Assembly (NCBI GenBank): GCA_038253225.1
Contig: JBBSHH010000002.1
Location: forward strand, 971 to 64,970
Length of the DNA: 64,000 bases
Direction of reading: 5' to 3'
DNA from: Mycobacteriales bacterium
Lineage (GTDB): Bacteria > Actinomycetota > Actinomycetes > JALYNC01
In this document: positions 3,011 to 29,897 of the stretch, one piece after another
Numbering within the stretch: the stretch's first letter is position 1
Layout: every line of letters starts with the position of its first letter
Position numbers and translations under genes: made by a program
Notes under the pieces: generated by a model
The model's database searches: none
Seen by the model: only the letters and a program-made list of their open reading frames with translations
Told to the model about the DNA's origin: nothing

Positions 3011-4519
3011 TCAGCCCCGGCCGGCCAGCGGGGTGATGTGCAGCACCAGCTCGGGGTCGAGGCTGAGCACCACCGTGACCACCACGGCGACGGCGATCGC
3101 CACCGCCACCGGACGGCTGGCCGGGCCGTCCGGCGGCTCGACCGCAGGGACCCCGGCCGACCCCCGGTCCTCCGGGGCGAACAGCAGCGCGGCCAGGCGC
3201 AGGTAGTAGAACAGCGCGACGACGGTGTTGACCGCCATCACGACACCCAGCCACACCACCTCGCCGCGCACCGCCGCGGAGAACACCACGACCTTGGCGA
3301 AGAGCCCGGCCAGGCCCGGTGGCAGCCCGGCCAGGCAGGCGAGGAAGAACGCCAGCGCCAGCGCTACCAGGGGCGAGCGGCGGGCCAGTCCGCGGTAGTC
3401 CGCCACCGCGTTGCGCGGCCGGTCCCCGGCCACCCACACCACGCAGGCAAAGGCGCCGAGCGTCATCGCCGCGTAGAACACGACGTATCCCAGCGTCGCA
3501 GCCGCGGCGTCGTCGAGCACCCGGGCCCGGCCGTACGCCGACGCCGCCACCCCGAGCGGCACCAGCATGTAGCCGGCCTGAGCCACCGAGGACCAGGCCA
3601 GCAGTCGGATGACGTACCGCTGCCGGAGAGCCACCAGGTTGCCCACGGTCATGGTCAGCGCGGCGATAACGGCGAGCATCGGGCCCCACACGTCGGCGTA
3701 GCCGCGGAAACCGACGAGCAGCACGATCAGCAGGCCGGCGAAGCCCGCGGCCTTCGACGCGACCGACAGGAACGCCGCCACCGGCAGCGGGGCGCCCTGG
3801 TAGGTGTCCGGCGCCCAGGCGTGGAACGGCACGGCGGAGACCTTGAACGCGAAGCCGACGATGACCAGCGCGATGCCGGCGGAGGTCACCGGCTGCCGCA
3901 GCCGCGGGCGGGCCAGCGCGGCGGCGACCTGGTCGAGCTGCAGCGAGCCGGTGACGCCGTACACCAGGCTGGCACCGAAGATCAGCACGGCCGTCGCCAA
4001 CACCGAGATCAGGAAGAACTTCAGCGCGGCCTCGCTGGAGCGCGGGTCGGCCCGACGGAAGCCGGCGAGCACGAACACCGGGACCGTGACCACCTCGAGG
4101 GAGAGCACGAGCAGCAGCAGGTCCCGACTGCCGGCCAGAGTGATCATCCCGGTGAGCGAGACCAGCAGCAGGAAGTGGTACTCCCCCGCCGGCAGCCGCT
4201 GCGCCCGCACGGTCGGCTCGGAGAGCAACAACACCACGGCGGTGGCGAGCAGGAAGAGCCCGCTGAACAGCAGGCTGAACCGGTCCACGGCGTAGGAGCA
4301 GCCGCCCGCGGCGGTGCAGAACGTGGACCGGTCGTCGCCGGCGGCCAGCGCCCCGGTGGCCACCATGGCGGCCACGACCCCGGCGAGCGACACCGGCAGC
4401 GCGACCCCGCGCCGGTCCGCCGGGACGAACAGGTCGAGGACGAGGACGCCGAGAGCGGTGCCGACCGCCAGCAGCGGCGGCGCGATCGCTGCGTAGTCGA
4501 TGGAGGCGGCGAAGGGCAC
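3011..4519 (-). CDS. nuoN: Complex-I-like antiporter subunit NuoN2 (second, partial nuo cluster)
   Basis: 502 aa polytopic membrane protein. It carries the NuoN/NuoM-family motifs (…AAFLSVASKAAGFAGLL…, …VGNLVALRQRYVIRLLAWSSVAQAGYML…). It follows nuoM2 after a 7-nt gap. Confidence 0.8.
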   Translation of the reverse strand: MPFAASIDYAAIAPPLLAVGTALGVLVLDLFVPADRRGVALPVSLAGVVAAMVATGALAAGDDRSTFCTAAGGCSYAVDRFSLLFSGLFLLATAVVLLLSEPTVRAQRLPAGEYHFLLLVSLTGMITLAGSRDLLLLVLSLEVVTVPVFVLAGFRRADPRSSEAALKFFLISVLATAVLIFGASLVYGVTGSLQLDQVAAALARPRLRQPVTSAGIALVIVGFAFKVSAVPFHAWAPDTYQGAPLPVAAFLSVASKAAGFAGLLIVLLVGFRGYADVWGPMLAVIAALTMTVGNLVALRQRYVIRLLAWSSVAQAGYMLVPLGVAASAYGRARVLDDAAAATLGYVVFYAAMTLGAFACVVWVAGDRPRNAVADYRGLARRSPLVALALAFFLACLAGLPPGLAGLFAKVVVFSAAVRGEVVWLGVVMAVNTVVALFYYLRLAALLFAPEDRGSAGVPAVEPPDGPASRPVAVAIAVAVVVTVVLSLDPELVLHITPLAGRG

Positions 4520-4526
4520 CCCGAGG

Positions 4527-6011
4527 TCACCCGCCGCCGAGCAGCCGGCGGACCGCAGCGTCGGTCACACCGAGCACGAGTCGTGGGTAGAGACCCAGGA
4601 CCAGGGTGAGCGCGAGCAGCGGCGCCCACGCAGCCAGCTCGACCGACGTGACGTCGCCGAACCGGCGCTCCCGCCACCGCTCCGGCACGACCCCGAGCGT
4701 CACCCGGCGCAGCAGCACCAGCAGGTACACCGCGGTCAGCACCGTACCGACACCGGCCAGCACCATCAGCGTAAGGAACAGCCCGCGGTGCAGGCCCTGC
4801 GCCGGCCGGAACGCCCCCAGCATCGCGAGCATCTCGCCCCAGAACCCGGCCAGCCCCGGCAGCCCGAGGCTCGCGATCGCGGCGAAGGTCAGCAGCCCGC
4901 CCAGCAGCGGCGCCTTGGCCAGCACCCCGCCGCCGATCTCGGCGATGTCCTGCGAGTGGTAGCGGTCCTTGAGCGCGCCGACGAGGAAGAACAGCAGCCC
5001 GGTCACCACCCCGTGCGCGACGTTGGCCAGCAGGGCGGCGTTGACCCCGACCGGGGTCAACGTGGCGATGCCGAGCAGGACGAAGCCCATGTGCCCGACG
5101 CTGGAGTAGGCGATGAGCCGCTTGATGTCGCGTTGTACGAGGCAGCACAGCGCGCCGTAGATGATGCCCACGACGGCGAGCACACCGAGGTACGGCGCGA
5201 AGTCGCGAGCTGCGGCCGGCAGCTCGGTGACCGCGATCCGGACCAGCCCGTAGGTGCCCATCTTCAGCAGCACGCCGGCGAGCAGCACCGAGCCGACGGT
5301 CGGTGCCTCGGTGTGCGCGTCCGGCAGCCAGCTGTGCAGCGGCCACATCGGCGTCTTGACCGCAAAGCCGAGGAACAGCCCGAGGAACGCCAGGTCCTGC
5401 GCCGCCCGGGGCAGGTCGGCGCCGCCTCGCCGGCCCAGCCGGACCATGTCGAACGTTGCGGTGTGCGCGTAGATGACCAGGATGCCGAGCAGCAGCAGCA
5501 CCGAGCCGAGCAGCGTGAACAGGATGAACTTCGTCGCCGCGTAGCTCCGGCGCTCGCCGCCCCAGAGCGCGATGAGGAAGTACATGGGGGCGAGGACGAC
5601 CTCGAAGAACACGAAGAACAGCAGCAGGTCGAGCGCCAGGAACGTGCCCAGCATGCCGACCTCGAGCAGCAGCACCAGCGCCAGGAACGCCCGCGGTCGG
5701 CCGGGCTCGGGCAGGGTCTTCAGGGTGTAGACCGCGCACAGGAAGCTCAGCAGCGTGGTCAGCACCACCAGCGGCAGCGAGATCCCGTCCAGCCCGAGGT
5801 GGAACCGGATGTCCGCGGCCGGCACCCAGGCGCGGTCGACGCCGAGCTGGAAGCCGCCCCGGTGGTAGTCGTACGCCGCGAGCAGCGCCAGGCTCAGCCC
5901 GAACGTCGTGGCCGTGGCGGCGACCCCGATCCGGCGGGCCCAGCGATCCGGCGCCGCGAGCAGCCCGGCGCAGCCGGCCAGGGGCAGGAGGAGCAGCGCG
6001 ACCAGGATCAC
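4527..6011 (-). CDS. nuoM: Complex-I-like subunit NuoM2
   Basis: 494 aa. GTG start ([13 protein letters not shown]…) overlaps the nuoL2 stop (GTGA). Motifs FFVFFEVVLAPMYFLIALWGG, WLPDAHTEAPTVGSVLLAGVLLKMGTYG and LIAYSSVGHMGF are present. The 1126-aa track ORF 4527..7907 is a read-through artefact. Confidence 0.85.
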   Translation of the reverse strand: MILVALLLLPLAGCAGLLAAPDRWARRIGVAATATTFGLSLALLAAYDYHRGGFQLGVDRAWVPAADIRFHLGLDGISLPLVVLTTLLSFLCAVYTLKTLPEPGRPRAFLALVLLLEVGMLGTFLALDLLLFFVFFEVVLAPMYFLIALWGGERRSYAATKFILFTLLGSVLLLLGILVIYAHTATFDMVRLGRRGGADLPRAAQDLAFLGLFLGFAVKTPMWPLHSWLPDAHTEAPTVGSVLLAGVLLKMGTYGLVRIAVTELPAAARDFAPYLGVLAVVGIIYGALCCLVQRDIKRLIAYSSVGHMGFVLLGIATLTPVGVNAALLANVAHGVVTGLLFFLVGALKDRYHSQDIAEIGGGVLAKAPLLGGLLTFAAIASLGLPGLAGFWGEMLAMLGAFRPAQGLHRGLFLTLMVLAGVGTVLTAVYLLVLLRRVTLGVVPERWRERRFGDVTSVELAAWAPLLALTLVLGLYPRLVLGVTDAAVRRLLGGG

Positions 6012-7921
6012 GTCAGCACCGCCACGCCGGCGACCAGCACCAGCACCCCCAGGAACAGCGCGGTCGCGTAGGCCTGCACGTTGCCGTTCTGCAGCCGCCG
6101 GAGCCCACCGCCGGCGAGCCACGCGCCGGAGCCGGACCCGCTCGCCAGCCCGTCGACGCCGGTGACGTCGAAGCCCAGCACCGCCCGGGCCAGTCGCGGC
6201 AGCGGTCGGACCAGCACCGCGTCGTAGAGCTCGTCGAGGTAGAACGCCCGCTCGAAGGGCCGCCGGGCCCGGCCCAGCAGCCGGGCCGGGTCGGCCGCCG
6301 GTGCCCGCCGCCAGCCGGTGTAGGTCACCAGCACCCCGAGCAGGCCGAGCGCGGTGGCGACCAGCGCGGTGCCGGCCTGCGGCCCGAGCGACGGCGTCGG
6401 CGGCGCGGTCAGCGGCAACGGCGTGTAGGCGAAGAACGCGACGTCCCGGCCGTACCCGAGCCAGCCCGGCAGCCAGCCGGAGCGCAGGCCGACGAACCCG
6501 AACGCGGCGGCGGGCAGCGCCAGCAGCAGCAGCGGCACCCGCATCGCGGTCGGCGCCTCCTCGATGACGGCGGTCCCGCGGTAGGTGCCGAAGAACGTCC
6601 GCAGCCACAGCCGGGTGGCGTAGGCCCCGGTCAGCAGCACGGTCAGCATCCCGGCGACGAACACCAGCCAGGCCGCCGGTCGGTCCAGCACCGGCCGCGC
6701 CGCGCCCGTCGCGGCCGCCCACGCCGAGCCGAGCACCGCGTCCTTGCTGAAGAAGCCGCTGAACGGCGGCAGCCCGGCCAGCGCGGCGAGCCCGACCGTC
6801 ATGGTCGCGAACGTGACGGGCAGCCCGCGACGCAGCCCCCCCATCTCGCTCATCAGGTTGGTGCCGACGGTGCGGATCACCGCGCCGGCGCAGAGGAACA
6901 GCAGCGCCTTGAACGCGGCGTGGCTGAGCAGGTGGAACAGGCCGGCGGCGTACCCGCCGACCGCCAGGCCGCCGGTCATGTACGCGAGCTGACTGACCGT
7001 CGAGTACGCCAAGACCCGCTTGAGGTCGTCCTGGGCCAGCGCGGCCAGCGCGCCGAGCAGCATGGTGACGGCGGCGCTGACGGCGAGCACGTCGAGGGTG
7101 ACCGGGGAGAGCACGAACACCGGGTAGAGCCGGGCGACGACGTACACGCCGGCCGCGACCATGGTGGCCGCGTGGATCAGAGCCGAGATCGGGGTCGGCC
7201 CGGCCATCGCGTCGGGCAGCCAGGTGTGCAGCGGGAACTGCGCGCTCTTGCCGACCACCCCGCAGACCAGCAGCAGCGTCCCGACCAGCACCGCGGTGTG
7301 GCCGAGCCGGGGCGCCCGGTCGAGCAGCGCGCTGATCCGGAACGAGCCGGCCGCCGTACCCAGGGTGAAGATGCCGAACAGGAACCCGACGTCCCCCACC
7401 CGGGTGGTGAGGAACGCCTTGACCGCGGCCGCCGAGGCGCTCGGCTGCTGCCAGTAGTGGCCGATGAGGAAGTAGGAGCAGACGCCCATCACCTCCCAGC
7501 CCACGAGCAGCTCGAGCAGGTCGGCGGAGACCACCACGAGCAGCATCGCGGCGGTGAACAGCGACACGAGCGCGGCGTACGACGGGTAGCGAGGGTCGCC
7601 GCGCAGGTAGGCGGTGGAGTAGACCTGCACGAGCAACGCCACTACGCAGACCATGACCGCGACGACCGCGGCCAGCCCGTCGACCCGGGTACCGACGGCG
7701 ATCGGCACGGCCCCGGTGGGGGTCAGCAGCGTGCTCGTCTCCCGGACCCGGCCGGGGTCGCCGAGCACCGCGACGGCCAGCGCCAGCGCCAGCCCGGTGG
7801 GGACGGCGGTGCCGAGGACCGCGACGCCGGCCGGGCCGCCGGGCAGCCGGCGTCCGGCCAGCAGCCCGAGCACCGCGGCGAGGAACGGCACGGCCGGCAC
7901 CAGCCAAGCGGCGCCGGTCAC
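6008..7921 (-). CDS. nuoL: Complex-I-like subunit NuoL2
   Basis: 637 aa. GTG start ([17 protein letters not shown]…) overlaps the nuoK2 stop (GTGA). Motifs [49 protein letters not shown] and [16 protein letters not shown] are present. Confidence 0.85.
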
Positions 7922-8253
7922 CGCTGCAGCTCCGGCTCGGGCGGGTCGACGTCGGCGAGCTCCCGGACCCGGTCGATGTCGATCGACTCCCGGTTGCGGT
8001 AGACCAGCAGCACGATTGCGAGACCGACGCCCACCTCGGCGGCGGCGACGACGATCACGAACAGCGCGAACACCTGGCCGCCGAGCAGCCGGTCCTGCAG
8101 GTAGACGCTGAACGCGACCAGGTTGACGTTCGCACCGTTGAGCATCAGCTCGACCGACATCAGCACGAGCACCGCGTTGCGCCGGGCCAGCACGCCGTAC
8201 ACCCCGAGCGCGAACAGCCCGGCGGCGAGCAGTAGCGGGTAGACGAGGTGCAC
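7918..8253 (-). CDS. nuoK: Complex-I-like subunit NuoK2
   Basis: 111 aa starting [49 protein letters not shown]…. The GTG start overlaps the nuoJ2 TAG stop (TAGTG). The upstream part of the 256-aa track ORF is an Arg-rich artefact. Confidence 0.8.
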
Positions 8254-8852
8254 TACGGCGCTCCGCGTCCGTCGGGCGGCCGGTCGGCGCCGATGTCCGG
8301 GCGGGACAGCACGATCGCGCCAACCAGCGCGGCCAGCAGCAGCACCGAGGCGACCTCGAACGGCAGCACGAAATAGCGGAAGATCGCCCCGCCGGTGGCC
8401 GCCGGGCCACCGGGTGCGGTGTCGAGGTCGACGTAGGCCGCCCGGAACCCGTCGACGAGCAGCCCGCCGAGCGCGCCGAACGTCGCGACCGCGGCGAGCA
8501 GCGCCGCCGGCCGGTTCGCGCTGTCGAGGTCGGCGCTGCGCCCGATCGGGGCCCGGGTGAGCATGGCCCCGAAGAGCAGCAGCACCACGACAGCGCCGAC
8601 GTAGATCAGCACCTGCACCCAGGCGACGAACTCGGCGGTCAGCAGCAGATAGCAGCCGGCGACCGCGCCGAGCGCGACGACCAGCCATAGGGCCGCGTGA
8701 ATGACGTTGCGGGTGGTGACGACGAGCACGCCGGCCGCGAGCGCCAGCAGCGCCAACGCGACGAACACCGCCTCCTGCGGATCCCAGCCGAGGAAGCCCG
8801 GCGCGGTGCGGGGCACCGGCAGCGCACCGGCGAGCAGGTCAGCCGGGCTCAC
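8253..8852 (-). CDS. nuoJ: Complex-I-like subunit NuoJ2
   Basis: 199 aa from GTG (VSPADLLAG…) preceded by GGAGA. The protein is NuoJ-like (…[18 protein letters not shown]…). The upstream portion of the track ORF is junk. Confidence 0.7.
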
Positions 8853-9390
8853 GGCGTGGTCTCCGTTCGGCCCGGGCCGCGGTCGGGACGTCTCCGCGGG
8901 CGACCTGGACCTCCTTCGGCGTCTCCCCGGCCGGGTCGAGCGCCGGGGGCGGCGGCACCGTCCACATCCACTCGCGGAGCCGGTCCTTCTCGTGGGTGAG
9001 CTCGCTGACGTCGTACGTCGCGTACTCGAACTCCGGCGACCAGAACAGCGCGTCGAACGGGCAGACCTCGATGCAGATCCCGCAGTACATGCACAGGGCG
9101 AAGTCGATCGCGAACCGGTCGAGGATGTTGCGGGTCCGGGCCCGGGCGCCGGGCTCGCGCGGCGGGACGGTCTCCTTGTGCGAGTCGATGTAGATGCACC
9201 AGTCGGGGCACTCCCGGGCGCAGAGCATGCAGACCGTGCAGTTCTCCTCGAACAGCGCGATGACACCGCGGGACCGGGGCGGTAGCTCAGGCTTGAGGTC
9301 CGGGTACTGCGCGGTCACCGCCGGCCGCAGCATCGTGCGCAGCGTGACCGCGAGCCCGCGGGCCAACCCGCCGCCGGGCGGTCCGGTCAC
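8839..9390 (-). CDS. nuoI: Complex-I-like subunit NuoI2 (2x[4Fe-4S] ferredoxin)
   Basis: 183 aa. GTG start ([31 protein letters not shown]…) overlaps the nuoH2 stop (GTGA). It has two CxxCxxCxxxCP motifs ([15 protein letters not shown] and [12 protein letters not shown]). Confidence 0.85.
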
Positions 9391-10379
9391 CGGCGCACCA
9401 CCTCCACGACCCCGGTGAGCAGCAGCTGCCCGAACGCGAGCGGCACCAGCGTCAGCCAGGCGAAGCGCTGCAGCTGGTCCTCTCGCAGCCGGGGGTAGCT
9501 GACCCGCAGCCAGATCACGAGGAAGGACAGCGCGAGCACCTTGACCAGCGTCCAGAGCCAGCCGAGCTGGACGTCGAGGAACGGCCCCTTCCAGCCGCCG
9601 AGGAACAGCACGGTGGTCAGCGCCGCGAACACCACGATGCCGGCGTACTCGGCCAGCAGGAAGAACGCGAACCGCAGCCCGGTGTACTCGGTGAGCGGTC
9701 CGAACACCAGCTCGGAGTCGGCGTAGGGCATGTCGAACGGCGGCCGCCGCAGCTCGGCGAGGCCGGCGGTGAAGAAGATGACGCCGGCCACCCCCTGGTA
9801 GGGCAGCCACCACCAGTGCCAGGCCTGCGCAATGCCGGTCAGCGACAACGTGCCGGCGGCCATGGCCGCGGACGCTGCGGCGAGCACCAGCGGCAGCTCG
9901 TAGGCCATCAGCTGGGCCGCCGCCCGCAGGCCGCCGAGCAGCGCGTACTTGTTCGCGCTGGCCCAGCCCGCCATCAGCGTCCCGAGGACCCCCACCCCGG
10001 CCATCGCGAGCGCGAAGAAGATGCCGACGTCGAGCTCCTGCGCGACCTGCTCGCCCGGACCGACCGGGACGACGAGCAGCACCAGCAGGTAGGGGAGCAG
10101 CTGCACCACCGGGGCGAGTCGGAACACCGCCCGGTCGGCGGCGGCCGGCACGATCTCCTCCTTCTGGACGAACTTCACGCCGTCGGCGACGAGCTGAGCC
10201 CAGCCATGGAACCCGCCGGCGTACATCGGGCCGACCCGGGCCTGCATGTGCGCCATCGCCTTGTGCTCCAGCTGCCCGACCAGCAGCGGCAGGGTGAGGA
10301 ACGCGACCAGGCAGCCGAGCAGCTTGGCGGCGACCTCAATCCACAGCGGCAGGCTCACCGGCTCGACTCCGGTCCCCAC
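9387..10379 (-). CDS. nuoH: Complex-I-like subunit NuoH2
   Basis: 330 aa. NuoH-family motifs are present (…[35 protein letters not shown]…, …[40 protein letters not shown]…). It is clearly a divergent paralogue of nuoH at 22652..23956. Confidence 0.85.
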
Positions 10380-10921
10380 TCCGCCGGGTCGGGCACCCCG
10401 AGCGGGCCCATCCGGCGCCGACCCGGTGCCCCCTCGGCGCCCTCCCCCGGCTCCTTGGCCCCCGGCCAGGCCTTGGCGACCCGGGAGGCGAGCACGAAGG
10501 TCTTGCGCAGCGGGTGGCCCTCGAAGCCCTCCGGCAGCAGCAGCGGCACCAGGTTGGGGTGACCGTCGAACGTGATCCCGAACATCTCGAAGGTCTCCCG
10601 CTCGTGCCAGCCGGCGCCGCGGAACACCGGGAGCAGGCTCGGCAGCCGGGGCGCCTCGACCGGCACCCGGGTGCGGAGCAGCACGTGGAAGCGGCGGTCG
10701 ATCGCGTAGAGGTGCAGCACCACCGCGAAGCCCTCGGCCAGCAGGTCGTAGGCCGAGAGCCAGTCGAAGAACCGGGCGCCCAGCTCGTCCCTGGCGAACG
10801 TCGCGGCGGCCACCCAGCTGGCCGCCGGCACCTCGACGGTGACCTGGCCGTACGCCGGCTCGAGCACCGCCTCGACGCCGAAGCGGTCGACGAACGCGGC
10901 GCCGACCTGCTCCGGTGTCAC
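10355..10921 (-). CDS. nuoC: Complex-I-like subunit NuoC2 (30 kDa subunit, short)
   Basis: 188 aa. It carries the NuoC signature …[41 protein letters not shown]…. The GTG start overlaps the nuoB2 stop (GTGA). Confidence 0.85.
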
Positions 10922-11511
10922 CGGCTGCCCGGCGGCCGGACCAACGCCTGCTGCAGCGCCGCGTCCGGCAGGGCCGGGCGGACCGGGGCGGGGCGGTAGC
11001 GGTCGCCGAGCGACTCGCGGCCGATCTTGTCCTGCAACCGCAGGATCCCGTGCAGCAGCGCCTCCGGCCGGGGTGGGCAGCCGGGCACGTAGACGTCGAC
11101 CGGGATGATCTGGTCGACGCCCTTCGTGACGCAGTAGCTGTCCCAGTAGGGACCGCCGCAGTTCGAGCAGGCGCCGAAGGAGATGACGTACTTGGGCTCC
11201 GGCATCTGCTCGTAGAGTCGGCGCACCGCCGGCGCCATCTTGTCGGTCACGGTGCCGGAGACCACCATCAGGTCGGCCTGACGCGGCCCGTGGGCGAACG
11301 GGATGACACCGAGGCGGATGAAGTCGTGGCGGGACATCGAACTGGCGATGAACTCGATCGCGCAGCAGGCCAGCCCGAAGTTGAACACCCAGAGGCTGTA
11401 CTTGCGGCCCCAGTTCAGCACGAAACGCATCGGCGCCGGAACCTCGGCCCCGAGCACACCGATGCCCTCCGCCGGCTCGGGCCGCCGACGGATCGTCGGG
11501 ATCAGGTCCAC
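10918..11511 (-). CDS. nuoB: Complex-I-like subunit NuoB2 (N2 cluster subunit)
   Basis: About 197 aa from GTG ([10 protein letters not shown]…), which overlaps the nuoA2 stop. The cysteine ligands of cluster N2 are retained ([29 protein letters not shown]). The 639-aa track ORF 10918..12837 is a read-through artefact. Confidence 0.85.
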
Positions 11512-11915
11512 GTCAGCACCTTCTTGCGCCAGGCGTAGAGCAACCCGACGGCCAGCAACCCCAGGAAGATCACCATCTCGACCAGCGGGGCCACCCCGAA
11601 CGCGGGCAGCGCGAACACCGTCGCCCACGGGAACAGGAACACCGCGTCGACGGCGAAGACGACGTAGAGGAAAGCGAAGACGTAGTAGCGGATCTGGCTC
11701 TGGGCCCAGCCGTCGCCGACCGGGTCGAGCCCGCACTCGTAGCTGGTGAGCTTCTCCGGGGTCCGCCGGTAGGGCCGCAGCAGCCGGTTCGCGGTGAAGG
11801 CGACGGTGACGAAGCCGATGCCGAGGAGCGCCAACAGGGCGAGCATCGCGTAGCTGGCGATGTAGCCGTCCAGATCGCCACCTCCCGCATCCTCGCGCGC
11901 ATCGTAGGCCGCCAC
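11502..11915 (-). CDS. nuoA: Complex-I-like subunit NuoA2
   Basis: 137 aa (or about 114 aa from the internal Met). It carries the NuoA motif …[40 protein letters not shown]…. Confidence 0.8.
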
Positions 11916-12006
11916 CGCGGCTTCGGCCGGATTCCCAGGCCCATCGCGGCGTACGATAGGCGGTCGGCGTCACCCAGGACGGGGCGCGCCACAGGAGGCC
12001 TCCGGC

Positions 12007-13857
12007 GTGACCAAGCAGGTGCGGCAGCTCGACCGCGTGGTGATCCGCTTCGCCGGCGACTCCGGCGACGGGATGCAGCTCACCGGTGACCGGTTCACCG
12101 CCGAGACCGGCGCGTTCGGAAACGACCTGTCCACGTTGCCCGATTTCCCGGCCGAGATCCGCGCCCCGGCCGGCACCCTGCCGGGGGTGTCCGCGTTCCA
12201 GCTGCACTTCTCCGACCATGAGATCCTCACCCCGGGCGACGCGCCGGACGTGCTCGTGGCGATGAACCCGGCGGCGCTCAAGGCCAACGTCCGGGACCTG
12301 CGCAAGGGCGCCGACATCATCGTCAACACCGACGAGTTCACCAAGCGCAACCTCACCAAGGTCGGGTACGCCGCCAGCCCGCTCGACGACGGCTCGCTGG
12401 AGGAGTACCGGGTGCACCCGGTGGCGCTGACGTCGATGACGATCACCGCGTTGGCGGCGTACGACATCGGCAAGAAGGACGCCGGGCGGGCCAAGAACAT
12501 GTTCGCGCTCGGCCTGCTCTCCTGGCTGTACAACCGGCCGACCGAAGGGACGCTCGAGTTCCTCGCGAAGAAGTTCGCGAAGCAGCCGGAGATCGCCAAG
12601 GGCAACGTCGCGGCGTTCCAGGCCGGCTGGAGCTTCGGGGAGACCACCGAGTCGTTCTCGGTCAGCTACGAGGTCAAGCCGGCCGTGATGCGGCCCGGGA
12701 CCTACCGCAACGTCTCCGGGAACCTGGCCTTGGCCTACGGGCTGATCGCCGGCTCCCGGCTCAGCGGGCTGCCGTTGTTCCTCGGCTCGTACCCGATCAC
12801 CCCGGCGTCGGACATCCTGCACGAGCTGAGCCGGCACAAGCGGTTCGGGGTGCGGACCTTCCAGGCCGAGGACGAGATCGCCGGCATCGGCGCGGCCCTC
12901 GGGGCCGCCTTCGGTGGCGCGCTGGGGGTCACCACGACCAGCGGGCCCGGGGTGGCGCTGAAGTCCGAGACGATCGGCCTGGCGGTCTCGATCGAGCTGC
13001 CGCTGGTCATCTGCGACATCCAGCGTGGCGGTCCGTCCACCGGGCTGCCGACCAAGACCGAGCAGTCAGACCTGCTGCAGGTGATGTTCGGCCGCAACGG
13101 CGAGGCACCGGTGCCGATCGTGGCGCCGCGGTCGCCGGCGGACTGCTTCGACGCAGCGATCGAGGCGGTCCGGATCGCTACGAAGTACCGCACGCCGGTC
13201 TTCGTGCTCTCCGACGGCTACCTCGCCAACGGCTCCGAGCCGTGGCTGCTGCCGGACGTCGGCGGGCTGCCGGACCTGCGGGTCGAGTTCACCACCGCGC
13301 CCAACGGCCCGGACGGTGAGTTCCTGCCGTTCCGGCGCGACCCCGAGACGCTGGCCCGGCCGTGGGCGGTGCCCGGCACCCCGGGCCTGGAGCACCGGAT
13401 CGGCGGCCTGGAGAAGGCCGACGGCACCGGCAACATCTCCTACGACCCGGCCAACCACGACACGATGGTGCGGCTGCGCGCGGCGAAGATCGACGGCATC
13501 GCCCGCGACATCCCGCCGCTGGAGGTCGACGACCCGTCCGGGCGGGCCGGCGTGCTCGTCCTCGGGTGGGGATCGACGTACGGGCCGATCGGCGCGGCGG
13601 TGCGGCGGATCCGGGACGAGGGCGGCGCGGTCGCGCAGGCCCACCTGCGTCACCTGCACCCGTTCCCCACCAACACCGGCGAGGTGCTCCGGCGATACGA
13701 CCGGGTGCTCGTGCCGGAGATGAACCTGGGCCAGCTGGCGATGCTGCTGCGGGCCCGCTACCTCGTCGACGTCATCACCTACAACCAGGTCCGCGGGATG
13801 CCGTTCCAGGCAGCCGAGCTGGCCGGAGTGCTCCGGGACGTGATCGACAGTGACTGA
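12007..13857 (+). CDS. korA: 2-oxoglutarate:ferredoxin oxidoreductase alpha subunit (KorA, 2-oxoacid:acceptor oxidoreductase)
   Basis: 616 aa. GTG start with the SD sequence ACAGGAGG. The protein is KorA-typical along its whole length (…[38 protein letters not shown]…, [12 protein letters not shown]…). It is divergent from nuoA2, separated by a 91-bp gap. Confidence 0.9.
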
Positions 13858-14911
13858 CCCGCAGCTCCACCTCGGTGCCCTCGACCTGGTGCCGAAGTCC
13901 GGGGAGAAGCAGACCGCGAAGGACTTCAAGACCGACCAGGAGGTCCGCTGGTGCCCCGGCTGCGGGGACTACGCGATCCTGGCGGCGGTGCAGGGCTTCC
14001 TGCCCGAGCTGGGGCTGCGCCGGGAGAACATCGTGTTCGTCTCCGGCATCGGCTGCTCCTCGCGTTTCCCGTACTACATGAACACCTACGGGATGCACTC
14101 GATCCACGGTCGGGCGCCGGCGATCGCCACCGGGCTGGCCACCTCCCGCCCCGACCTGTCCGTGTGGGTGATCACCGGGGACGGCGACGGGCTCTCGATC
14201 GGCGGCAACCACCTCATCCACGCGCTGCGCCGGAACGTCAACCTCAAGATCCTGCTGTTCAACAACCGGATCTACGGGCTGACGAAGGGCCAGTACAGCC
14301 CCACCTCGGAGCTCGGGAAGGTCACCAAGTCGACGCCGCTGGGCTCGCTGGACTACCCGTTCAACCCGGTCTCGCTCGCACTCGGGGCGGAGGCGTCGTT
14401 CGTCGCCCGCACCGTCGACTCCGACCGGCGGCACCTCACCTCGGTGCTGCGGGCGGCCGCCGAGCACCGCGGCACCGCGTTCGTGGAGATCTACCAGAAC
14501 TGCAACATCTTCAACGACGGCGCGTTCGAGGCGATCAAGGACCCGGACACCCGCGAGGACGTGACGATCCGGCTCGAGCACGGCGAGCCGATCCGGTTCG
14601 GCCGGCCGGGCGCGGAGAAGGTGGTACGCCGGACCGCCGGGGGCGGCGTCGAGGTGGTCGACGGCACCGGTCCGGCGGCGGCCGAGGCCGTCGTCTTCGA
14701 CGCCCACGCCGCCGAGCCGATGCTGGCCTTCGCGCTGTCCCGACTGGCCGACGCCACCGGCGGCTACACCCCGATCGGGGTGTTCCGCGACGTCGTCCGA
14801 CCGGTGTACGACGACCTGATGCGCGAGCAGCTGGAGCGGGCCGAGGCGACCTCCGGCCCCGGCGAGCTCGCCGAGCTGCTCACCAGCGGCGACACCTGGC
14901 GCATCGGCTAG
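13850..14911 (+). CDS. korB: 2-oxoglutarate:ferredoxin oxidoreductase beta subunit (KorB, TPP-binding)
   Basis: 353 aa. It has the CPGCGDY motif, GIGCSSRFPYYMNTYGMHSIHGRAPAIATG, and the TPP motif GDGDGLSIGGNHL. It overlaps korA by 8 nt. Confidence 0.9.
   Translation: MTDPQLHLGALDLVPKSGEKQTAKDFKTDQEVRWCPGCGDYAILAAVQGFLPELGLRRENIVFVSGIGCSSRFPYYMNTYGMHSIHGRAPAIATGLATSRPDLSVWVITGDGDGLSIGGNHLIHALRRNVNLKILLFNNRIYGLTKGQYSPTSELGKVTKSTPLGSLDYPFNPVSLALGAEASFVARTVDSDRRHLTSVLRAAAEHRGTAFVEIYQNCNIFNDGAFEAIKDPDTREDVTIRLEHGEPIRFGRPGAEKVVRRTAGGGVEVVDGTGPAAAEAVVFDAHAAEPMLAFALSRLADATGGYTPIGVFRDVVRPVYDDLMREQLERAEATSGPGELAELLTSGDTWRIG

Positions 14912-28547: not shown

Positions 28548-28548
<1 letters not shown>
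27712..28548 (-). CDS. nuoE: NADH-quinone oxidoreductase subunit E (2Fe-2S), with an acidic low-complexity C-terminal tail of about 100 aa
   Basis: 278 aa from ATG (MPLTEQTVAQAREIVARYPKPRSALLPMLHLVQ…), overlapping the nuoD stop (ATGA). Cluster N1a cysteines are present (CTNLSCQLLG…ECLAACDYAP). The track ORF 27712..29442 is a read-through artefact. Confidence 0.88.

Positions 28549-29893
<1,345 letters not shown>

Positions 29894-29897
<4 letters not shown>

Follow-up and report, generated by a model that had tools for sequence, protein, structure and literature searches.

How can a complex I gene cluster work without the gene for the 49-kDa subunit, NuoD? The question is raised by a 64,000-nucleotide stretch of DNA from a Mycobacteriales bacterium (contig JBBSHH010000002.1; hereafter the window, with a G+C content of ~72%), which holds two nuo clusters. 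One is a complete canonical nuoA-N operon at ~14.9–31.6 kb. The other, which we call nuo2, is a run of ten consecutive minus-strand genes at 3011–11915 that Pfam identifies as nuoA2-B2-C2-H2-I2-J2-K2-L2-M2-N2. An initial annotation of the window pointed out that nuo2 has a nuoC but no nuoD, and that all known relatives of complex I keep a NuoD-like subunit, a statement that we judge to be correct. The answer we favor, with a probability of roughly 65%, is that the nuo2 products and a NuoD2 encoded by an orphan gene together form an 11-subunit complex I that has no NADH-oxidizing module (N-module) and possibly takes its electrons from ferredoxin. Since the subunit absent from the cluster most likely has its gene at another site, the locus gives no evidence of a NuoD-less complex I, and an operon without nuoD is a known property of the widespread actinomycete nuo2.

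Pfam searches and tblastn of the window place no PF00346 homolog within the nuo2 cluster, in agreement with what the annotation had read from the letters. The sole NuoD homolog that tblastn finds in the window is the canonical one, which matches NuoD of M. smegmatis (PDB 8E9G) at 4.6e-204 and retains both His38 and Tyr87. The nuo2 cluster also contains no NuoE, NuoF or NuoG: E. coli queries match the canonical operon alone, at 24.4–28.5 kb, and all three are single-copy in the window.

There is no space for an extra gene between nuoC2 and nuoH2, which overlap under either start of nuoH2, as the annotation had argued. It had begun nuoH2 at GTG 10379, giving a 25-nt overlap with nuoC2, whose stop codon TGA occupies 10355–10357. 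This is possible, but GTG 10358 is the more likely start, to judge from the second GTGA overlap that it creates and from an N-terminus as long as that of Streptomyces NuoH2. The first GTGA overlap, between the nuoB2 stop and the nuoC2 start, stands as described in the junction sequence. The start codon of nuoB2 was our own choice, and start codons apart from those of nuoC2 and nuoH2 were set by homology. Four-nucleotide GTGA or ATGA overlaps are seen at five junctions (B2/C2, 10918–10921; C2/H2, 10355–10358; H2/I2, 9387–9390; K2/L2, 7918–7921; L2/M2, 6008–6011), a pattern in keeping with translational coupling throughout the nuo2 cluster. NuoC2 itself, short at 188 amino acids and matching PF00329, is a true NuoC, 33–38% identical to canonical NuoC, and is neither a NuoD nor a NuoCD fusion.

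The layout is not peculiar to this bacterium. A NuoC2 scan in which each species was represented by one genome gave matches in more than 588 species, and we analyzed the best 80 loci plus one Spirillospora locus, with the window proteins as tblastn queries. The best 80 come from Streptomyces, Actinomadura, Spirillospora, Actinoallomurus, Nonomuraea and Bailinhaonella, and from metagenome-assembled genomes (MAGs) of Mycobacteriales and Streptosporangiales; Streptomyces supplies about 50 loci. The order A2-B2-C2-H2-I2-J2-K2-L2-M2-N2 is the same in 81/81 loci, with identities of 50–87%, and none of these 20-kb loci contains a NuoD match (E < 1e-5). Orthologs of nuoA2 (58–70% identity) head the cluster in 80 of the 81, those of nuoI2 are 73–85% identical, and NuoJ2 is 62% identical to its counterpart in Nonomuraea gerenzanensis. 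The nuoD-less nuo2 layout is a conserved actinomycete architecture and no local accident. The comparison with related partial nuo clusters that the annotation had proposed thus returned the same nuoD-less order throughout. Its tentative remark that some Streptomyces clusters keep D and lack C was wrong, as the Streptomyces loci show B2-C2-H2.

Some of these loci are interrupted or incomplete. In N. gerenzanensis, an insert of ~2 kb separates A2 from B2 in the nuo2 cluster and another of ~3.5 kb separates H2 from I2 (locus L082, 14650–16600 and 18813–22367), and in Spirillospora an opposite-strand HHH_3 gene stands between H2 and I2 (L001, 11473–12518). For two Nonomuraea loci (L056, L070), the flank contains no gene from I2 onward.

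Published descriptions of streptomycetes report extra nuoA2, nuoB2, nuoD2 and nuoH2–N2 genes, contiguous and transcribed together as a single operon save for nuoD2, which is located elsewhere; the NuoC-like gene goes unmentioned in both papers (PMC3765725; PMC8388888). The supplement on S. ambofaciens lists a 383-amino-acid ‘subunit D’ ~10 kb from a GTP cyclohydrolase gene and far from both nuo operons (PMC8388888). In S. coelicolor, Nuo2 subunits turn up among the abundant proteins (PMC9739823). What we found in the literature on a D-less complex I cluster consists of annotation-level remarks on Streptomyces only, and a broad survey of complex I variants describes no such cluster (PMC4758237).

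The GTP cyclohydrolase clue from S. ambofaciens led us by way of ftsH and its surrounding region to the nuoD2 of N. gerenzanensis. By tblastn, the chromosome of this species (NZ_LT559118.1, 11.85 Mb) has exactly two places each for NuoB, NuoC, NuoD and NuoI. The canonical operon lies at ~1.14 Mb and nuo2 at ~1.21 Mb, and a second NuoD is absent around both of them (regions L082 and L083). It is found at 471,028–472,179 (L087, 18028–19179), ~740 kb from nuo2, and encodes 384 amino acids matching PF00346 (E = 7.5e-76), with 35% identity to the canonical NuoD of the window (E = 6e-78). DoxX and acyltransferase_3 genes flank it, and folK-folB-folP-folE-ftsH adjoins. With only two NuoB places in the chromosome, a separate hydrogenase-type complex with a NuoB-like protein of its own is not indicated. 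Queries with Thermus Nqo4, E. coli HycE and a Rhodococcus HycE-like protein, taking the best place per record, did not reveal the second NuoD, and they showed that this NuoD is not closely related to hydrogenase subunits of the Rv0087 type. One N. longicatena assembly likewise has nuo2 (contig 070) and an orphan nuoD2 (contig 045). A nuoD2 elsewhere in the genome, which the initial annotation had itself set against its reading, is therefore present in N. gerenzanensis, N. longicatena and, by published annotation, Streptomyces (PMC3765725; PMC8388888). As an aside, PLSDB files whole chromosomes as plasmids (NZ_LT559118.1 and NZ_CP108785.1, besides a number of records of E. coli, Klebsiella and Proteus), which is a trap for plasmid statistics.

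NuoD2 is 91–99% identical within Nonomuraea and 92% in Thermoactinospora, and MAGs of Nocardioidaceae and Propionibacteriales contain relatives 80–94% identical to the NuoD2 representative P0241. It shares 42% identity with Thermus Nqo4 and keeps the GPQHPSTHG loop with His34 and His38. A set of 20 diverse members shows no change at Arg84, Asp86 or His169, and conservation of His38 reaches at least 90%. Tyr87 (Thermus numbering), which ligates the quinone, is on the other hand Trp family-wide, within the motif NRHDWLSA/G. Among the best 150 cluster representatives (P0241–P0390), Trp87 occurs in 54 of the 118 full-length sequences, so Trp87 NuoD2 is a large and diverse family. Some Trp87 NuoD representatives also lack His38. 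A deletion of 25 residues (Thermus 306–330) was considered as a further NuoD2 signature and rejected, being common to many Tyr87-bearing NuoD and NuoCD proteins. In all 80 metagenomic loci and seven genomic or assembled contexts, nuoD2 is an orphan with no other nuo gene within 10 kb; conversely, no nuo2-type cluster with nuoD inside was found among the 81 genome loci or the 80 nuoD2-centered metagenome loci.

Equivalent Tyr-to-Trp mutations in model enzymes severely lower decylubiquinone reduction and bring inhibitor resistance, and a Y87W in ‘piericidin-producing Streptomyces’ has been attributed to self-resistance (PMC4758237). Because Trp87 is family-wide in NuoD2, the self-resistance case probably reflects the NuoD2 paralog. 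The annotation had also offered an altered acceptor site as one of its two readings; a site formed without NuoD is not the best account, whereas an altered site is supported indirectly by Trp87.

Several observations connect NuoD2 with the nuo2 products. Subunit pairs from nuo2 and the canonical operon are 33–52% identical, and the NuoD2/NuoD pair, at 35%, has diverged to a matching degree. NuoD2 keeps its N2-facing residues and so requires a NuoB to pair with; among the NuoB proteins, only NuoB2 comes from a nuoD-less operon. We infer that NuoD2 assembles with Nuo2 and, from the relatives, that the source genome carries nuoD2.

The surroundings of nuoD2 are also informative. A PF02636 (Methyltransf_28) gene lies upstream on the same strand, at a distance of 41–3855 bp, in 23 of the 30 loci whose upstream flank exceeds 3 kb, and PF02636 neighbors were seen in 36 of the metagenome loci L095–L174. 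Their Pfam E-values run from 4e-23 to 4e-17, and their PDB relatives are ‘DUF185’ and ‘COG1565’ proteins. We take PF02636 to be the NDUFAF7/MidA family. During assembly of mitochondrial complex I, NDUFS2 (the NuoD of mitochondria) is dimethylated at Arg85 by NDUFAF7 (PMC3829151). An NDUFAF7-like neighbor together with an invariant target Arg supports NuoD2 as a real subunit of the quinone module (Q-module) of a complex I, and the methyltransferase presumably modifies NuoD2. Beside nuoD2, 20 of the 80 metagenomic loci have one or two divergent bPH_2 genes (PF03703, a bacterial PH-domain membrane protein; L094, 1864–3761; L104, L123, L126 and 17 others), a position held in Nonomuraea by the DoxX and acyltransferase_3 genes.

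What kind of enzyme, then, does nuo2 encode? NuoB2 keeps all four Cys ligands of the iron–sulfur (Fe-S) cluster N2 (E. coli C63, C64, C129 and C158), and the NuoI2 translation has two CxxCxxCxxxCP motifs. NuoH2 retains most of the conserved acidic loop residues; E36, E157, D213, E220, E228 and R291 (E. coli numbering) are kept. None of the canonical pump residues examined in the antiporter-like subunits has changed, namely E144, D178, K229, H334, H338, K342, K399 and D400 in NuoL2, E144, K234, K265 and E407 in NuoM2, and E133, K158, K217, K247 and K395 in NuoN2. Against the PDB, NuoB2 matches complex-I PSST/NuoB at ~1e-50, compared with 1e-31 for MbhJ and 1e-27 for HycG, while NuoH2 matches ND1/NuoH at ~1e-57, compared with 8e-13 for MBS subunit M. 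Matches of NuoB2 and NuoH2 to MBH, MBS and FHL range from 1e-13 to 1e-35, and complex I is better by 20–45 orders of magnitude. Two candidate identities were set aside: an MBH- or FHL-type hydrogenase, on this PDB similarity and the lack of a large subunit in the cluster, and a pseudogenized remnant, on conservation, intact key residues and published expression.

Judged by its sequence, the nuo2 cluster encodes a complex-I-type, quinone-type enzyme without the NADH-oxidizing module. It has the seven membrane subunits, the Fe-S ligands of NuoB and NuoI, the NuoC and the lack of NuoE, NuoF and NuoG that characterize an 11-subunit complex I without the N-module; a NuoD encoded with the cluster is what it does not have. 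It also agrees with the actinomycete nuo2 of the SCO4599–4608 type in gene order, in the NuoC2 tail motif and in having korAB upstream and divergent.

The neighboring korAB genes suggest where the electrons may come from. Of the 62 loci with more than 5.5 kb of flank, 60 have a korA ortholog (71–82% identity) upstream of nuoA2 at a distance of no more than 10 kb, and korB stands beside korA in 61 related loci. The spacing between korA and nuoA2 ranges from 85 bp to 8 kb across several orders, and the intervening genes vary. Within the window, korAB sits between both nuo clusters, and the end of korB abuts the end of canonical nuoN. The S. coelicolor ortholog SCO4594 is annotated as a 2-oxoglutarate:ferredoxin oxidoreductase, whose abundance pattern is that of SCO4599–4608 (PMC8981147; PMC9739823). 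By analogy with the ferredoxin-driven NDH-1, ferredoxin reduced by KorAB may be the donor of Nuo2; this is the weakest step of our proposal, and we give it even odds at best. The features discussed above are listed in Table 1.

Table 1. Genes of the nuo2 region, the canonical nuoD and the genes beside nuoD2 (window positions, unless a comparison locus is named)
Feature	Position	Strand	Length	Family match	Remarks
nuoN2	3011–4519	-		PF00361	antiporter-like
nuoM2	4527–6011	-		PF00361	antiporter-like
nuoL2	6008–7921	-		PF00361 + PF00662	antiporter-like
nuoK2	7918–8250	-		PF00420	start approximate
nuoJ2	8253–8852	-		PF00499	start approximate
nuoI2	8839–9390	-	183 aa	Fer4 family matches	clusters N6a and N6b
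nuoH2	9387–10379 (or from GTG 10358)	-	330 aa (or 323 aa)	PF00146, E = 3e-99	
nuoC2	10355–10921	-	188 aa	PF00329, E = 6.8e-35	30-kDa NuoC
nuoB2	10918–11511	-	197 aa	PF01058	carrier of Fe-S cluster N2
nuoA2	11502–11915	-	137 aa	PF00507, E = 6e-32	
nuoA2/korA divergent intergenic region	11916–12006		91 bp		from the open reading frame map; putative shared promoter region
korA	12007–13857	+	616 aa	PF01855, PF01558, PF17147	2-oxoacid:ferredoxin oxidoreductase, alpha
korB	13850–14911	+	353 aa	PF02775	beta, thiamine pyrophosphate-binding
canonical nuoD	28548–29897	-	449 aa	PF00346, E = 1e-115	within the nuoA-N operon
gene beside nuoD2	L088, 8596–9396	as nuoD2		PF02636	
gene beside nuoD2	L089 and L090, 4239–5201	as nuoD2		PF02636	
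gene beside nuoD2	L092, 458–1429	as nuoD2		PF02636	
gene beside nuoD2	L094, 965–1867	as nuoD2		PF02636	

The enzyme that we propose would draw 10 of its 11 core subunits from nuo2, namely the membrane arm of A2, H2, J2, K2, L2, M2 and N2 plus B2, C2 and I2. The eleventh, the 49-kDa NuoD, would come from the orphan nuoD2 at the separate, conserved panC-folK-folE-ftsH locus. NuoI2 would receive electrons from a non-NADH donor, likeliest KorAB-reduced ferredoxin, and pass them through N6a and N6b to N2 in NuoB2. Menaquinone or a related acceptor would then be reduced in a pocket formed by NuoD2, NuoB2 and NuoH2, with Trp in place of Tyr87, and this reaction would power proton pumping via L2, M2 and N2. 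The proposal in its fullest form, a split-encoded, proton-pumping complex I made of nuo2 and a Trp87 NuoD2 matured by an NDUFAF7-like methyltransferase and fed by KorAB and ferredoxin, is tentative, and it is rather unlikely that all of its parts hold at once.

Several points weigh against this proposal. Our search in the source organism spans only the 64-kb window, part of a 67.7-kb contig, and nuoD2 is predicted there from other genomes. The link between NuoD2 and Nuo2 draws on copy-number parity, a few co-occurrences and parsimony; direct co-occurrence comes from two Nonomuraea assemblies and the Streptomyces literature, and the closest named relatives, Actinomadura and Spirillospora, are not among them. 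As for the equivalence of PF02636 and NDUFAF7, the PDB matches carry only the names ‘DUF185’ and ‘COG1565’. We found no ferredoxin gene in the cluster and identified no docking subunit, NdhS, NdhV and NdhO not having been sought. The adjacency of korAB could be inherited synteny, the canonical nuo operon being nearby too. Finally, Tyr87Trp is equivalent to mutations that cripple quinone reduction (PMC4758237), and NuoD2 might not support ordinary quinone chemistry.

If NuoD does not come from nuoD2, it could come from the canonical operon, as the initial annotation had suggested. Nuo2 would then borrow the NuoD encoded at 28548–29897, and one NuoD would serve two complexes. The canonical operon lies near korAB in the same window and holds the sole NuoD of the 64 kb, and cyanobacterial NDH-1 variants do share core subunits (cited in PMC3765725). 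We nevertheless consider borrowing improbable and not the best explanation: relatives with the same operon have a dedicated, highly conserved and partnerless second NuoD, and the NuoD-contacting Nuo2 subunits are only 33–50% identical to their paralogs, which would make an interface with NuoD1 unlikely. Still less probable is that the nuo2 products are isoforms swapping into canonical complex I. This has been proposed for Streptomyces NuoL2 and NuoM2 by analogy with the cyanobacterial NdhD/NdhF isoforms (PMC3765725; PMC8388888), and conserved antisense RNAs over nuoL2 and nuoM2 speak for it. A swap sits poorly with a cluster that encodes B, C and I alongside a full membrane arm and has coupled junctions and an order invariant in 81 loci. 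NuoD2 moreover completes the 11-subunit set, and 33–52% identity between paralogs is low for interchangeable parts.

A Nuo2 that truly has no NuoD, with an acceptor site made by NuoB2, NuoC2 and NuoH2, the NuoC2 tail filling in and NuoD2 unrelated, is in our view very improbable. It would fit the absence of nuoD in or near the 81 nuo2 loci, the conserved and family-specific NuoC2 tail, and a NuoD2 that is never linked to nuo genes and has lost Tyr87. However, N2 and the quinone cavity are at the NuoB–NuoD interface in all solved relatives, and the N2 ligands of NuoB2 and the loop residues of NuoH2 are intact. Arg84 and His169 of NuoD2 face N2 and would have no purpose without a NuoB, and a 40-residue tail, mainly Pro, Gly and charged residues, is no substitute for a 380-residue subunit. 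The remaining alternative keeps the complex of nuo2 products and NuoD2 and changes the donor, to F420H2 as in Fpo or to another carrier acting through an unlinked input module; we regard this as unlikely, though the most probable of the alternatives. Actinomycetes make F420, Fpo is an N-module-less relative that takes F420H2 through FpoF, and the korAB linkage may be synteny, with no ferredoxin gene found in the cluster. The nuo2 loci that we analyzed contain no FpoF- or FrhB-like gene, a weak argument given that the search covered our set of query proteins only, and korAB stays adjacent across several orders even though the intervening genes change.

The complex of nuo2 products and NuoD2 can be placed among known systems. 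The nuo2 of Streptomyces (S. coelicolor SCO4599–SCO4608) resembles that of the window in its gene order including the NuoC-like gene, in having no nuoD, nuoE, nuoF or nuoG, and in its upstream korAB (SCO4594/95), with orthologs 50–85% identical. It differs in its NuoC2, which has a tail of ~350 amino acids where the window protein is short, and in the distance from korA to nuoA2, ~4 kb with AbrC two-component genes between (PMC9739823) as opposed to 91 bp in the window. The cyanobacterial and chloroplast NDH-1 (PDB 6HUM, 6NBY) is likewise an 11-subunit core without NuoE, NuoF and NuoG, with ferredoxin input at the NdhI side, and NuoB2 and NuoH2 match its NdhK and NdhA at ~1e-50. NDH-1 differs in keeping ndhH (NuoD), with His and Tyr intact, and in having NdhS, NdhV and NdhO for ferredoxin binding; Nuo2 is no nearer to it than it is to the complex I of mitochondria or Thermus.

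With canonical complex I (represented by Thermus 4HEA, by M. smegmatis 8E9G and by nuoA-N in the window itself), Nuo2 has in common all folds of the core membrane part and the Q-module, the Fe-S ligands and the pump residues. The differences are that Nuo2 has no N-module, that its nuoD lies outside the operon, and that NuoD2 has Trp87 and no counterpart of Thermus residues 306–330. The Fpo of methanogens is also N-module-less, uses an alternative donor and has a modified acceptor pocket in FpoD (PMC4758237). By description, fpoD lies in the operon, FpoF is used, and FpoD has Tyr87 and lacks His38 and Asp139, the reverse of NuoD2. MBH, MBS, FHL/Hyc and the mycobacterial Rv0082-87-like clusters are distant homologs of B, C, D, H and L; MBH-type clusters have fewer antiporter subunits and always hold the NuoD-like large subunit within the cluster, as in Rhodococcus pRZP3.

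NuoC2 has some features of its own. The window protein has thousands of homologs; its best match is only 70% identical, and the nearest, at 60–70%, come from Actinomadura, Spirillospora and MAGs. Its C-terminal motif WPGAKEPGE...RRRxxPPGVPDxxWGP is invariant in 24 orthologs and missing from canonical NuoC; the tail is located at 10355–10500 of the window. One might guess that it offers a basic surface on which an acidic donor could dock. Streptomyces NuoC2 has 534 amino acids, with a Pro/Ala/Glu-rich, low-complexity tail of ~350 amino acids after the NuoC domain (L029, 9959–11563), and it is probably because of this long tail that the gene between nuoB2 and nuoH2 has not been named nuoC2 in Streptomyces. 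In Spirillospora and Actinomadura, NuoB2 is the extended subunit, at ~400 amino acids (L001, 8811–10004).

These results expose an annotation gap, in that the NuoC between nuoB2 and nuoH2 has been overlooked in published descriptions of the Streptomyces nuo2. They also bring out the NuoD2 family as a large set of orphan Trp87 NuoD genes with a recurrent NDUFAF7-like neighbor. If our proposal is true, a ferredoxin:menaquinone (or other acceptor) oxidoreductase would tie the 2-oxoglutarate step of the tricarboxylic acid cycle directly to the membrane, and the maturation of NuoD2 would repeat an assembly step known from mitochondria. The korAB linkage leads to the hypothesis of ferredoxin-driven proton pumping by an abundant, little-characterized complex of antibiotic-producing actinomycetes.

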